The notes under the pieces were generated by a model that made no database searches, was not told where the DNA came from, and saw nothing but the letters and a program-made list of their open reading frames with translations. This document shows positions 50,691 through 57,481 of a stretch of DNA of 62,685 nt, piece by piece (position 1 is the stretch's first letter; every line of letters begins with the position of its first letter). The position numbers and the translations under genes are program-made. This DNA is from Chloroflexota bacterium (GTDB lineage Bacteria > Chloroflexota > Anaerolineae > Anaerolineales > UBA4823): positions 1 through 62,685 of the forward strand of contig JAQBDA010000049.1 in the NCBI GenBank assembly GCA_032124675.1. Direction: 5' to 3'.

Positions 50691-50735
50691 CCGGTCAGCT
50701 CCTCCCGGGAAGACTCGCTGCCCGGGGGAACCGGT
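50691..50735 (-). terminator. GC-rich hairpin between the MEMO1 and CNNM genes
   Basis: CCTCCCGGG...CCCGGGGG flanked by CCGGT/ACCGG; imperfect. Confidence 0.35.
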
Positions 50736-51610
50736 CAATTTATTTGGGCACTCCTGAAGATGGCAGCCGCTGCGTATCCGACCACCTGGCTGTAGTCTCC
50801 GGTAATATCCCCTGATGTTGCGTAATTCAATACCCGGACGATGTCAGCGCCCATTGCTTGAGCAGCCCACATGACCGCCGCCAAAGCACCCCGCCCGCAG
50901 GCAAAGCCCTTCCCCTCTTCTTCAGCCTGCAGCACGCCTGCCGGATCGAACGCCTCGACCCGGCGCAAAATCTCTCCGTCCAGCACGCGGGCTGTCTCCC
51001 GAGGATAGAAATGGGATAAATCTGTGCTGGCGACCATCAGGGCGTTGTAACCACCCAGCACCTTCGACAGCGCCCTGCCCAGTCCGCGAGCGACGCGTGG
51101 GCTGGGATCACGCACCATAACAGGCATCAGGGAAAAATCATGCGGCAAAGAACGCTGCAGGAAGGGCAGCTCGATCTCCAAAGAATGCTCCGGATCACGC
51201 CTGACCGTCGTCAGACCTACCCCCAGCTCGATCTGCAGGTAGGCATCCAGAGCTTGCAGGGCGTCCTGATCAATCAGCACCCCGCCCAGCGGGGTGCTGT
51301 AGCCCTGGTGTGCGCTGGTCAGCACGTGCCCATGGGCAGGGTAGTGCATGGGCGAGATGACCACCACCAGATCGGGTTCATACCCCGCTTGGGCTGCCTG
51401 GCGCACAGCCGAAAAGGCGTGACCTGCGACCGGACCGGAGTAGCGGTGCCCGGCGTGGGGTGTCATCACTGCCAGCAGATCCCCCGGGAGCTCGGGCGCA
51501 GCCGCGGCATCGATATAGGCATCAACCGATTGTGCCAGCTGTTCGGGGTCATCAGGGTACCATTGCCCGGCAATGGCAGAAGGTCTCAGATCGATTGTCT
51601 GGGCCATCAT
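50735..51610 (-). CDS. amrB: AmmeMemoRadiSam system protein B (MEMO1 family)
   Basis: RPSAIAGQWYP, PHAGHRYSG, TPLG, EHSLEIELPFLQ, ASTDLSHF, ACG, YATSGD, VVGYAA. Confidence 0.9.
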   Translation of the reverse strand: MMAQTIDLRPSAIAGQWYPDDPEQLAQSVDAYIDAAAAPELPGDLLAVMTPHAGHRYSGPVAGHAFSAVRQAAQAGYEPDLVVVISPMHYPAHGHVLTSAHQGYSTPLGGVLIDQDALQALDAYLQIELGVGLTTVRRDPEHSLEIELPFLQRSLPHDFSLMPVMVRDPSPRVARGLGRALSKVLGGYNALMVASTDLSHFYPRETARVLDGEILRRVEAFDPAGVLQAEEEGKGFACGRGALAAVMWAAQAMGADIVRVLNYATSGDITGDYSQVVGYAAAAIFRSAQIN

Positions 51611-51670: not shown

Positions 51671-51679
51671 TGATATAAT
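51671..51679 (+). promoter_or_regulatory. Extended -10 promoter for the T-box/Rdx/trpS transcript
   Basis: TGaTATAAT about 15 nt upstream of T-box stem I. Confidence 0.65.
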
Positions 51680-51693
51680 CCCTTCACGAAAAA

Positions 51694-51856
51694 AGCTACG
51701 ATGAGGACGAGTACACGCCGGTCCGGCGGTACAGAGAGCGGTAGAGGCTGAGAACTCCGCACGCACGCCGGCGCAGAATGGACCTCGGAGCTGCAGGGTG
51801 AAAAGCGCACACCGCGCCGAATAGCCCGTGCCGGAGCCGCCACCGTTATCCAGGCG
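51694..51856 (+). ncRNA. T-box riboswitch 5' half (stem I, II, IIA/B) with a Trp (UGG) specifier
   Basis: GCT..CGATGAGG / CCTCGGAGC base with kink-turn, AGTA 51710-51713, AGAGA 51733-51737, GCTGAGA 51747-51753, GAA-TGG-A specifier loop (TGG 51779-51781), stem II GGGTGAA...AATAGCCC, F-box CCGTTA 51843-51848. The downstream synthetase is trpS. Confidence 0.85.
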
Positions 51857-51922
51857 AAGGGTGTGCACTGGCTGCTGTAATTTCCGCCTGCTGCGCTCGA
51901 CCCGAGTGAGACTGGCTCATTC

Positions 51923-51956
51923 AACCCCGTCGTATCACCGGCGGGGTTATCATTTT
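51923..51956 (+). terminator. Terminator-like hairpin in the trpS leader
   Basis: AACCCCGTCG-TATCAC-CGGCGGGGTT followed by ATCATTTT. Confidence 0.55.
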
Positions 51957-52034
51957 AAAGGACTCGCGCTGTTGGTGGGAGGACGACACTCCCCCTGAAC
52001 TGCATAATATCACTAAAATAAACTGGAGCTGAAT

Positions 52035-52274
52035 ATGTTGATGAACATCGAGCTAGTTTACTGTGCCGTTTGACACTATACCGACAGGGCCATTGGTCAA
52101 ATGGCTGAACTGATTAAAGAATTCGAAACCGAGATCGAAACGTTTACCCTGGTGCCATCAGACGCCGGGAGCTTCGAGCTGACCGTCAACGGCAAGCTAT
52201 TGTATTCCAAGCTGCATTCCGGGCGGCACGCCGAACCCGGCGAGATCGCCGGGCTGATTCGAAAGATGGAGTAA
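52035..52274 (+). CDS. Rdx (SelW/SelT/SelH) family selenoprotein, CxxU motif, 79 aa
   Basis: MLMNIELVYCAV-U(TGA 52071-52073)-HYTDRAIGQMAELIKEFETEIETFTLVPSDAGSFELTVNGKLLYSKLHSGRHAEPGEIAGLIRKME*. GGAG RBS upstream, SECIS-like hairpin downstream, selD in the same window. Confidence 0.88.
52088..52106 (+). promoter_or_regulatory. Candidate bacterial SECIS of the Rdx gene
   Basis: GCCATT-GGTCA-AATGGC stem-loop with a G-starting loop 22 nt after the UGA. Confidence 0.6.
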
Positions 52275-52283
52275 GGAGGGCAT

Positions 52284-53276
52284 ATGTCAAGCGCCAAAAG
52301 AGGGCGGGTGTTTTCGGGCGCAAGGCCCACCGGGCGTCAGCACCTCGGCAATTACCTGGGGGCAATCCAGAATTATGTTGCGCTGCAGGACGAGTACGAT
52401 TGCATTTACTGCATCGTCGACCTGCACGCCCTGACCACAGTCGAGACTACGGAAAACCTGCGCCAGAACACTCACGAGATGGCACTGGATTGGCTGGCGG
52501 CTGGCATCCGGCCTGCTGAGTCGATCATGTTCATTCAATCTCACGTCCCACAGGTTGCCGAGCTGCACCTGATCCTCTCCATGGTCACGCCGCTCGGAAA
52601 GCTGACCGACCTGCCTACATTCAAAGAGAAAGTCCGCTACCAACCGCATAATATCAATTACGGGCTGGTCGGATATCCGGTGCTCATGGCGGCTGACATC
52701 GTCCTGTATAAGGCGAGCGCTGTACCGGTAGGAGTCGACCAGGAACCGCACATCGAGTTCACCCGCGAGGTGGTGCGCTCGTTCAACTACCGCTACAACA
52801 CAGATGTGCTGGTCGAACCGCAGATGAAGGCCACCGAGTTCCCCAAGGTGCTGGGCATAGACGGCCAGCAGAAGATGAGCAAAAGCCTGAACAATCACAT
52901 CGAGCTGGCAGCCACGCCCCAGGAAACCCAGCAGCGGGTGATGCAGATGGTCACCGACCCGCAGCGCATCCGCCGCAGCGACCCGGGGAACCCGGATGTG
53001 TGCAATGTGTTTACTATGCACAATATCTTCTCTTCTCAGGAAGAGATCGATATGATCAATGTCGAGTGCCGCCGGGCGGGTATCGGCTGCGTGGACTGCA
53101 AAAAGATCCTGGCGCGCAACCTGAATAACCATCTGGAACCCTTCCGGGCCCGCCGGGCGGAGATCGCTCAGGACCCCGGTCACGTAGAGGAAGTGCTCGA
53201 GGACGGCAAGAAGCGCGCTCAAACCATCGCCAGTCAGACCATCGCCGAAGTGAAAGAAGCTATCGGGCTGCCGTGA
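52284..53276 (+). CDS. trpS: Tryptophan--tRNA ligase
   Basis: FSGARPTGRQHLGNYLG (HIGH), VDLHALT, YPVLMAADI, VPVGVDQEPH, KMSKS. Confidence 0.96.
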   Translation: MSSAKRGRVFSGARPTGRQHLGNYLGAIQNYVALQDEYDCIYCIVDLHALTTVETTENLRQNTHEMALDWLAAGIRPAESIMFIQSHVPQVAELHLILSMVTPLGKLTDLPTFKEKVRYQPHNINYGLVGYPVLMAADIVLYKASAVPVGVDQEPHIEFTREVVRSFNYRYNTDVLVEPQMKATEFPKVLGIDGQQKMSKSLNNHIELAATPQETQQRVMQMVTDPQRIRRSDPGNPDVCNVFTMHNIFSSQEEIDMINVECRRAGIGCVDCKKILARNLNNHLEPFRARRAEIAQDPGHVEEVLEDGKKRAQTIASQTIAEVKEAIGLP

Positions 53277-53343: not shown

Positions 53344-53787
53344 ATGAGAGTCATCGTTCAAAGGGTCCGGCGTGGACGCGTCACTATCGAGGGACAGGGG
53401 ACCGCGCAAATAGGAGTGGGGGTTGTCATCCTCTTGGGGATCGGCATGGATGATGGCGAAGAGCAGGCGCGCTACCTGGCGGAAAAGATCGCCAATCTGC
53501 GCATTTTCGAGGATGAGGCTGGCAAGATGAACCGCTCACTGCTCGAGATCGCTGGGCAGGCGATCGTTGTCTCGCAGTTTACCCTGTATGCCGATACGCG
53601 CAAAGGGCGCCGCCCATCCTTCACCGATGCCGCCCCAGCGGAGATCGCCAGCCCGCTGGTGGAGCGCTTTGCCGACCTGCTGCGCGAGCAAGGCGTGCCC
53701 ACCCAGACCGGAGTGTTCGGCGCGCATATGCTGGTGGATATCGCCAACGACGGGCCGGTTACGATCTGGATGGAACGGCAGGAGTGA
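53344..53787 (+). CDS. dtd: D-aminoacyl-tRNA deacylase
   Basis: MRVIVQRV, LRIFEDEAGKMN, VSQFTL, KGRRPSF, GVFGAHM, NDGPVT. Confidence 0.95.
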   Translation: MRVIVQRVRRGRVTIEGQGTAQIGVGVVILLGIGMDDGEEQARYLAEKIANLRIFEDEAGKMNRSLLEIAGQAIVVSQFTLYADTRKGRRPSFTDAAPAEIASPLVERFADLLREQGVPTQTGVFGAHMLVDIANDGPVTIWMERQE

Positions 53788-56422: not shown

Positions 56423-57481
56423 ATGGTTCCATCTTCCGGCCGGCAAATCCGCCTGACCAGCCTGTCCAACTGTGCGGGTTGAGCGTCTAAACTAAGCGCG
56501 GAAGCGCTGGCGCAGGTGCTGCGCCCGATCCAGGGCATCTTCGATTCCCGAGACTACCCCGACCTGCTGGTAGGTCTGGGGGAGCCCGATGATGCGGCAG
56601 TATGGCGCCTGCCAGACGGGCGTGCCCTGGTGGTCACGACTGATTTCTTCACCCCGGTGGTCGATGACCCGTACGATTATGGGGCGATTGCTGCTGCGAA
56701 CGCGCTTTCCGATGTATATGCCATGGGCGGCAGCCCCTTCCTGGCACTGAATATAGCCGCCTTGCCGCCCGAGCTGCCGGCAGAACTCCTGGGGGAGATC
56801 ATGCGGGGTGGGGCAGAAAAAGCCAGGGAAGCCGGCGTGGTTGTAGCTGGCGGGCACACCATTCAGGATAAAGAACCCAAATACGGATTGGTCGTGCTGG
56901 GTTTTGCCGACCCGGCTGTGATGCTGACCAAGAGTGGTGCCCGCGCAGGAGATATCCTGGTGCTCACCAAGCCGCTTGGTTTCGGCACAACCACGACCGC
57001 TCTCAAACGCGGCCTGGCAGATGCAGAGCATGTCGCTGAGGCGGTGGCATGGATGAAGCGTCTGAACAGGACGGCTGCCGAACTGGCGGTGGAATTCGGC
57101 CTGCGCGGCGGCACGGACATCACCGGCTTTGGTCTGCTCGGACATGCCTGGGAGATGGCAGAGGCATCTGGAGTTAGGCTGCGCTTCTCCGTCGAAAAAA
57201 TACCTCTCATCAGCGGGGCACAGCGCTACGCCAGAGAATGGATCTTCCCGGGTGGTTCAGTGGATAACCGGCTGTTCTACGGTGGACATGTGCATTTTGA
57301 CCCTCAGATTCCAGAGGCTTCTCAGATGCTGTTGTTCGACGCCCAGACCAGCGGCGGGCTGCTGCTGGCAGTATCCAAGGAGAAATTAAAATCCTTGCAG
57401 GAGCGGGCAGCCAGCGTCGATCAGCCGTTGTGGGTTGTCGGTGAAGTAACCCAAGGCAAATCAATCGAAATCGCCCTTTAG
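56423..57481 (+). CDS. selD: Selenide, water dikinase (selenophosphate synthetase), selenocysteine-containing
   Basis: MVPSSGRQIRLTSLSNCAG-U(TGA 56480-56482)-ASKLSAEALAQVL, in frame with DDAAV, TTDFFTPVVDDP, NALSDVYAMGG, GGHTI, TDITGFGLLGH, DAQTSGGLL. Confidence 0.93.
56495..56508 (+). promoter_or_regulatory. Candidate SECIS of selD
   Basis: AGCGC-GGAA-GCGCT hairpin with its loop starting 18 nt after the UGA. Confidence 0.6.

Follow-up and report, generated by a model that had tools for sequence, protein, structure and literature searches.

T-box riboswitches are textbook RNAs that read both the identity of a tRNA and its charging state. In canonical transcriptional leaders, such as those of Bacillus subtilis tyrS and glyQS, a purine string docks on the duplex formed with the tRNA end, and structural models hold the discriminator made of stem III, helix A1, the T-box bulge and helix A2 to be necessary for aminoacylation sensing. 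Here we describe a leader that has the decoding-domain features of a T-box and lacks most of those of the discriminator. It lies on a 62,685-nucleotide (nt) contig of a Chloroflexota bacterium of the order Anaerolineales (JAQBDA010000049.1, assembly GCA_032124675.1; this whole stretch is called the window below), upstream of a small selenoprotein gene of the Rdx family and of trpS, the gene for tryptophanyl-tRNA synthetase (TrpRS). Its sequence identifies it as a tryptophan T-box derivative of Anaerolineales that is cut off within stem III.

Departures from the canonical scheme have been described elsewhere. The canonical discriminator includes an RRRxG-stem III-AA motif (PMC7583486). Translational ileS T-boxes of Actinobacteria are reported to act by hiding the Shine-Dalgarno sequence, with both bulge and discriminator still in place (PMC11297988, PMC12647780). 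The trpS leader resembles these in standing outside the terminator/antiterminator scheme; unlike them, it has no 3′ half of the discriminator, and no sequestration of a Shine-Dalgarno sequence was found in it. Tryptophan T-boxes before trpE and trpB-like genes are known in Chloroflexi, for example in Dehalococcoides (PMC2494555), and the TBDB paper mentions, without details, specifier-bearing leaders that lack the canonical UGGN (PMC7778990). A literature search joining T-box riboswitches with Anaerolineae gave no match. No published description was found of a conserved T-box without a T-box sequence before trpS, the TBDB supplements being outside the search, nor of a terminator-like hairpin nested in stem III, nor of an Rdx-trpS operon.

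The leader is encoded on the + strand and starts near 51689. At the gathering score no Rfam family (0) matched anywhere in the window; under an E-value threshold the T-box model RF00230 aligned to 51689-51883 with 47.9 bits (E 2.3e-9), short of its gathering score of 93. This cut-off is strict for the lineage, since all seven T-box matches of the genome fall below it (28.6-82.9 bits). The alignment covers stem I, the specifier, stem II and stem IIA with the F-box, and it skips the positions of stem III, the T-box and the antiterminator. The decoding domain so delimited (51689-51856) comprises stem I with its AGAGA motif and specifier loop, stem II, and stem IIA/B with the F-box CCGUUA (51843-51848). 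The specifier codon is UGG, for tryptophan (51779-51781), in the context GAA-UGG-A (51776-51782). A variable hairpin (51859-51903; RNAalifold columns 200-205 : 252-257) separates the F-box from the remnant of stem III, which consists of the GAGUG purine string (RRRxG) and a retained stem III 5′ strand ending in CUGGC (51904-51916, with UGGC at 51913-51916).

Like canonical members of RF00230, then, the leader has the K-turn/AGAGA region and specifier loop of stem I, the S-turn region of stem II, the IIA/B pseudoknot element CCGUUA, the RRRxG string, a hairpin with a U-tail and an aminoacyl-tRNA synthetase gene downstream. Unlike them, it lacks the stem III 3′ strand with its flanking AA, helices A1 and A2, and the 7-nt bulge UGGNACC between these helices; the corresponding model positions are skipped, and GGUGGNACC is not present within 260 nt of the F-box. 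The absence of an antiterminator bulge, which the original prediction had read from this sequence, is thus borne out by the covariance model. The canonical GGUGGNACCRCG is present in every one of the genome's six other T-box matches (by regular expression; four alignments were inspected), so the trpS leader is an exception within its own genome.

The arrangement is shared by many relatives. Of 401 genomes sampled from the order, 209, representing 93 of 123 genera, have the 5′ part of the leader. Fifty-nine further leader regions were fetched, chosen non-randomly for spread over families, and with the loci collected before them they made up a set of 76 leaders, all 76 with UGG in the specifier window. 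GGUGGNACC occurs within 260 nt of the F-box in 50 of these and is missing from 26, a set that includes the window's leader and one leader cut by a contig end. After leader-bearing named loci had been added and duplicates removed, 31 distinct truncated leaders could be parsed. Wherever the downstream DNA is readable, they precede a trpS of the iron-sulfur (Fe-S) type, and an Rdx gene stands between leader and trpS in 29 of the 31; loci L042 and L078 have no Rdx. The fit to RF00230 is limited to the 5′ part in four relatives too. Both the half alignment and the order half T-box, Rdx, trpS, which had been put forward for this locus as things to look for in related genomes, therefore recur. One-off decay of the leader, named at the same time as an outcome that would speak against an undescribed system, is refuted: an intact T-box directly before this trpS was seen in none of 19 leader-bearing Rdx loci, where the T-box motif itself scored 0/19, and in none of 25 complete motif-less leaders.

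Sequence divergence within the truncated class is considerable and is unevenly distributed. Among 30 aligned truncated leaders the mean column identity is 64%, and the region up to the terminator-like hairpin T1 is conserved while the DNA 3′ of it is not. CUGGC is kept in 30/31 leaders with its pairing partner gone, and the conservation of the block GUGA..CUGGC equals that of the core T-box motifs. Compensatory changes, counted when at least one sequence has both sides changed and the pair kept, occur at 24 of 53 predicted pairs in the 30 leaders. Stem I covariation, likewise put forward as a thing to look for, is present, with both sides changed at pair 32:84 in 16/30, at 30:86 in 6 and at 41:76 in 6; in stem II the same holds for pairs 119-121:155-157 in 8-14 of the 30, and in the variable hairpin for pair 200:257 in 11. 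Because so many pairs are compensated and the core motifs are intact at 64% identity, the comparison argues that the decoding domain of the truncated leader is under structural selection and not in recent decay.

The phylogenetic reach of the class has to be read with care. In one family (f1) at least 10 genera have truncated leaders, and two other families (f5 and f18) have them too. In a tree of decoding domains, itself weakly supported, 23 of 27 truncated leaders form one group (support 90/70). With a single main lineage, the conservation represents fewer independent lineages than the counts suggest, and it appears to reflect long maintenance in that lineage, with few cases elsewhere, and not many independent events. 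In a phylum-wide sample of 401 genomes the module pattern was matched in 14, namely the genome that contains the window, 12 further members of its order and one member of another order of the class, and in none outside the class; a reversed-pattern control of the scan gave 4 hits.

The origin of the remnant becomes legible in full-length tryptophan leaders of the same order (L018-L024 and L036-L091 in our numbering), which precede genes for a TrpB-like pyridoxal-phosphate enzyme, for trpE and for a second TrpRS paralogue (7 were checked against NCBIfam, the rest assigned by N-terminal similarity). In these leaders the F-box and the variable hairpin are followed by GA-GUGAGGCUGGC. A short linker rich in pyrimidines then leads to a hairpin, typically CCCGUCG-CAUCAC-CGGCGGG, and to AUUUUUGUUUAA. 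Further 3′, GUGAGGCUGGC finds its pairing partner in a strand exemplified by GCCAGCCU-AA-C, and GGGUGGCACCRCGG, the canonical motif, follows with its own terminator. On the RRRxG-stem III-AA scheme GAGUG is assigned as the purine string, AGGCUGGC/GCCAGCCU as stem III, and T1 as an insertion at the stem III tip; the counterpart of T1 is nested in stem III, upstream of the canonical T-box. The decoding domain, GAGUGAGGCUGGC, the T1 hairpin and the U-rich tail are common to both classes. What lies 3′ of T1 in the full-length leaders, from the stem III 3′ strand (GCCAGCCU-AA, for instance) through GGGUGGCACCRCGG to the second terminator, is missing from the trpS leader, which ends with the tail of T1. 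Its only terminator-like hairpin is therefore the stem III insertion of its sisters and not the T-box terminator.

The two strands of stem III have fared very differently in the full-length class. In 45 of 47 leaders the 5′ strand reads GUGAGGCUGGC without a change, and the 3′ partner takes 38 forms, which pair with it through wobble pairs and mismatches. This one-sided invariance points to a sequence-specific role of the 5′ strand beyond pairing. The stem III/T1 module is absent from 2 of 50 full-length leaders, L045 and L051, which were left out of the counts together with parser failures (L047, L068, L088, L026) and mis-parsed leaders (L050, L090, L096).

Full-length leaders have two terminator-like hairpins for a single stem I. 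The tandem T-boxes of Firmicutes trp operons are said, by Gutierrez-Preciado et al., to consist of two complete T-boxes, each with its own stem I. Like these, the sister leaders place two successive terminators before tryptophan genes, and the Firmicutes response is reportedly multi-step. Unlike them, the Anaerolineales leaders have one decoding domain before two terminator-like hairpins in the sisters and before the first of these only in the trpS leader.

In the window T1 occupies 51923-51956 on the + strand, as AACCCCGUCG-UAUCAC-CGGCGGGGUU followed by the tail AUCAUUUU, with a predicted energy of −17.7 kcal/mol. A consensus terminator scan places the hairpin at 51923-51948, where 7 G-C pairs contribute to a stem of 10 that is closed by a 6-nt loop and followed by the tail ATCATTTT; the region yielded 2 sites, and shuffled versions of it 0.8 ± 0.9. 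The T1 stem also covaries, pair 286:309 being changed on both sides in 9/30 truncated leaders. Transcription of the genes behind it must pass T1, because most loci leave no room for a promoter after T1 and trpS is the sole copy. Between T1 and Rdx lies a median of 29 nt (29 leaders, range 9-86), and the window's 86 nt are the maximum. Metatranscriptome contigs from four runs cover the region patchily. One contig from an RNA library (51758-52015) spans T1, which is weak evidence, as these data are contigs without ends or expression levels and may include DNA carry-over.

These features suggest how the leader might work. The tRNA-Trp of the organism, on contig C136, has G as its discriminator base and ends in GCCA, of which UGGC is the exact complement, and UGGC sits directly 3′ of the purine string. 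Since CUGGC is invariant without a partner, is complementary to the tRNA-Trp 3′ end and lies beside the purine string, UGGC can be proposed as an acceptor-end sensor. In our proposal T1 would be a transcription attenuator that has to be read through, and uncharged tRNA-Trp docked on the decoding domain would lower termination there; the retained UGGC would pair with the GCCA end and, with the purine string, would constitute a minimal sensor of the acceptor end. The trpS leader would in this way drive an operon of the selenocysteine-containing Rdx and the only, Fe-S-type trpS. We put tRNA-Trp-responsive attenuation at T1 through the retained UGGC at a little under an even chance. More doubtful, and less likely than not, is the proposal in its complete form, a T-box without a T-box sequence, in which UGGC and RRRxG would capture the 3′ end of uncharged tRNA-Trp as soon as they are transcribed and would so control the T1 hairpin nested in stem III. 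Full-length sisters would then pass two successive checkpoints, T1 and next the canonical T-box terminator, and in the trpS leader the first would be the sole one.

Several observations weigh against attenuation by tRNA-Trp, the most serious being that no convincing alternative structure that blocks the formation of T1 was found. The best candidate for an antiterminator paired GUGAGAC (51906-51912) with the T1 loop GUAUCAC (51932-51938), and was rejected. The two segments are complementary in 84.3% of cells of the alignment, and 75.7% are still complementary in a control in which one segment is slid by −3 columns. Only 1 of 7 pairs covaries (271:295; GC 21, AU 6, GU 1, other 2). The helix is predicted at −2.2 kcal/mol, against −25.8 kcal/mol for T1 together with a local hairpin, H1, and the most favourable context still leaves it some 12 kcal/mol behind that combination. 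In the full-length leaders, moreover, the T1 loop varies without compensation, and the pairing is not maintained. Truncated leaders also have the weaker U-tails behind T1: a tail with 5 or more U in 8 is found in 21/31 of them and in 42/43 full-length leaders, which leaves 10/31 truncated leaders below that mark, although a weaker tail would fit a leaky attenuator ahead of an essential gene. Finally, the leaders were sampled by the author's choice from the hit list and not at random, and the truncated class may have a single origin, given the 23/27 leaders in one group.

Two further structures were considered and set aside. H1 itself (51904-51922, + strand, −8.1 kcal/mol) pairs GAGUGAG with CUCAUUC around the loop ACUGG, with UGG in the loop. 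Such strength is confined to the genus of the window (−8.3 kcal/mol, z −3.4): over 31 leaders the median is −3.3 kcal/mol with z about −0.2, no better than shuffles, and H1 lacks support as a conserved helix. In favour of attenuation, the predicted local folds of 26/31 truncated leaders leave UGG unpaired. RNAalifold also proposes a helix between GCCGG in the 5′ strand of stem IIA (51830-51834) and CUGGC (51912-51916). Both sides are invariant, which makes covariation uninformative, and the helix would conflict with the canonical IIA helix and the IIA/B pseudoknot.

The main competitor of attenuation by tRNA-Trp is a leader that is blind to charge. Such an RNA would bind tRNA-Trp without distinguishing its charged from its uncharged form, T1 would be a leaky terminator or a pause, and total tRNA-Trp or the folded 5′ domain would tune read-through or the stability of the messenger. 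We regard this as unlikely, if worth serious thought. It accommodates without strain the missing bulge and A1/A2 helices, the want of a supported antiterminator, and a decoding domain conserved with covariation; a U-tail that is weak in 10/31 truncated leaders is what it predicts if the sole trpS needs high basal read-through. What it leaves unexplained is the retained sequence, namely CUGGC and the purine string, invariant in 30/31 leaders after the loss of the partner, and the stem III 5′ strand that is identical in 45/47 sisters against 38 forms of its partner.

Less probable still is decay, in which a complete T-box ahead of rdx-trpS in an ancestor was stripped of its 3′ half, leaving a constitutive 5′ untranslated region with a residual hairpin and no regulation. 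A truncated class of one origin is compatible with it, and Rdx-trpS works leaderless in many genomes. Remnants of a T-box after T1 may also be seen by eye: in L010 (about 1795-1830) UAAUCGGGGUG stands just ahead of the Rdx start, and the T1-Rdx spacer of L035 contains AAGGGUGUG...GUCCC. The Rfam T-box model found no remnants after T1 in L010, L012, L035 and L037, so these resemblances are unconfirmed. Against decay stand the spread of truncated leaders over at least 10 genera of f1 and over f5 and f18; core motifs that are intact at 64% column identity, with UGG in all and 24/53 pairs compensatory; and the boundary of divergence, which is free after T1 and not before it. A relic would thus be an improbable account of the leader.

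The gene directly behind the leader, Rdx (52035-52274, + strand, 79 codons), encodes a selenoprotein of the SelW/T/H family in which UGA, for selenocysteine (Sec), is codon 13 (52071-52073) in the motif CAVU. The protein scores 59.5 bits against Pfam Rdx (cut-off 22.6) and 51 bits against TIGR02174 CXXU_selWTH (cut-off 34.2). In 80 of 80 homologous loci, with or without a leader, the Sec codon is TGA; these loci come from named genome records of Anaerolineae/Chloroflexota, except for one contig labelled Bacteroidota. A hairpin resembling a selenocysteine insertion sequence (SECIS) starts 15 nt after the UGA (GCCAUU-GGUCA-AAUGGC, 52089-52105, + strand, from RNAalifold). It has a GGU-containing loop and compensatory changes at 4 of 5 pairs in 19 sequences, and we take it to be alike to the bacterial SECIS consensus. 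The genome also holds selB (292.7 bits), selA (547.5 bits), selD (365.7 bits) and, on another contig (C196), tRNA-Sec. With a covarying SECIS-like hairpin and this machinery present, the UGA of Rdx looks like ordinary Sec insertion. selD lies 3 kb downstream of the operon (56450-57385, + strand) and has one in-frame TGA; it is probably a selenoprotein gene itself.

Prokaryotic SelW-like/Rdx selenoproteins have been reported in bacteria (PMC1794560, PMC1088965). The window's protein resembles this family (TIGR02174) in its CxxU motif, its small size, its thioredoxin-like family and the SECIS-like hairpin after the UGA. Unlike the known members, it is a conserved operon partner of a TrpRS of the [4Fe-4S] type in Anaerolineales. 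Of 80 Rdx loci, 66 have trpS behind Rdx, at a gap of −13 to +304 nt (18 overlapping or touching, 19 at 4-68 nt and 29 at 100-304 nt). A tryptophan leader was detected upstream, by blastn, in 19 of the 80 loci and not in 61. Eight leaderless loci that were inspected have no T-box features and carry a TATAAT-like motif within about 50 nt of the Rdx start. The distribution indicates that the Rdx-trpS pair is older and wider than the leader; in our reading Rdx would be a co-transcribed ordinary selenoprotein outside the switch.

In the window the Shine-Dalgarno sequence of trpS, GGAGG (52275-52279), is directly 3′ of the Rdx stop codon TAA (52272-52274), and trpS itself runs from its ATG at 52284 to 53276 on the + strand (TIGR00233, 310.7 bits). 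The gene is single-copy by tblastn in an assembly that is 92% complete. The closest solved structure is that of Thermotoga maritima TrpRS (2g36, 283 bits), with all four cluster cysteines aligned. The spacing in the window's enzyme is C-x21-C-x6-C-x2-C, the first gap being one residue shorter than in C-x22-C-x6-C-x2-C, the [4Fe-4S] motif reported for the anticodon-binding domain of the T. maritima enzyme (PMC2954223). By its four-cysteine motif the window's TrpRS is of the [4Fe-4S] type, with a predicted cluster. Because the pairing is conserved in 66/80 loci, Rdx is possibly a redox partner of the TrpRS cluster domain. A second, divergent TrpRS paralogue is found behind a full-length tryptophan T-box at L019, L027, L045, L046, L049, L057, L069, L075 and L088-L090; at the two loci compared (L019, L027) it is 35-42% identical to the window's TrpRS. 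In genomes with this second enzyme, the Fe-S TrpRS has a truncated leader or none.

The junction of Rdx and trpS had suggested, in the original prediction, a circuit in which binding of tRNA-Trp and Sec-versus-Trp decoding of the Rdx UGA would control trpS by translational coupling at TAAGGAGG. All of the elements on which it drew are present in the sequence: the extended −10, the T-box 5′ domain with a UGG specifier, the T1 hairpin, the CxxU Rdx gene and the abutment of the Rdx stop on the trpS Shine-Dalgarno. tRNA-Trp is near-cognate to UGA, and among the 66 linked loci 37 have a short Rdx-trpS gap. The comparative data nevertheless weaken this circuit. The gap is 100-304 nt in 29 of 66 linked loci; leader and Rdx are each found without the other, with two truncated leaders lacking Rdx and 61/80 Rdx loci lacking a leader; the SECIS-like hairpin and the full Sec machinery point to normal Sec insertion; and UGA is kept in 80/80 loci irrespective of the leader. 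Of the non-canonical circuit that had been proposed, the conserved non-canonical leader stands, and the UGA read-through with translational coupling has become very improbable.

The other early suggestion, that an intact trpS T-box lost its antiterminator when Rdx inserted into it, draws on short-spacer relatives in which the Rdx start sits at the expected position of the T-box sequence, and is barely credible when the Rdx-trpS pair is present in 66/80 loci against 19/80 for the leader, leaderless operons have plain promoters, L042 and L078 are truncated without Rdx, and the break point lies within stem III of a lineage-specific architecture.

The remaining features of the locus concern its edges and its spacer. 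An extended −10 promoter-like motif, TGATATAAT, was read from the sequence at 51671-51679 on the + strand, and the leaders of relatives are preceded by TGATATAAT or TGATATACT at equal distance; a two-hexamer promoter scan of the region gave no + strand site and did not pick up the extended −10. The gene for a Memo-like protein (50735-51610, − strand) is divergent from this promoter, and dtd, for a D-aminoacyl-tRNA deacylase (53344-53787, + strand), comes directly after trpS. The spacer between T1 and Rdx (51957-52034, + strand) includes the ribosome-binding site of Rdx, GGAG (52025-52028), and a 63-nt stretch that is absent from the nearest relative (G002), whose match skips query positions 317-379. 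The stretch (51956-52018), the flanks of which are 88% identical in that relative, contains a small hairpin, GGGAG-GACGACA-CUCCC, and CTGCATAATAT. At L042, which has a truncated leader and no Rdx, a second extended −10-like motif, TGATATACT, lies between T1 and trpS. There trpS might be transcribed from a promoter of its own, and the leader might terminate as an independent short RNA.

T-boxes of Anaerolineales thus offer a natural leader that has kept its decoding half under selection in many genera, has lost most of its discriminator, and stands before the only TrpRS. The truncated leader may sense tRNA by an undescribed route. Either UGGC and the purine string suffice for sensing the acceptor end, or these leaders regulate without reading charge. 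The sister leaders would be the first case of two terminators under one stem I. The conserved pairing of a selenocysteine-containing Rdx with an Fe-S TrpRS, in turn, points to a possible redox partner for that synthetase.

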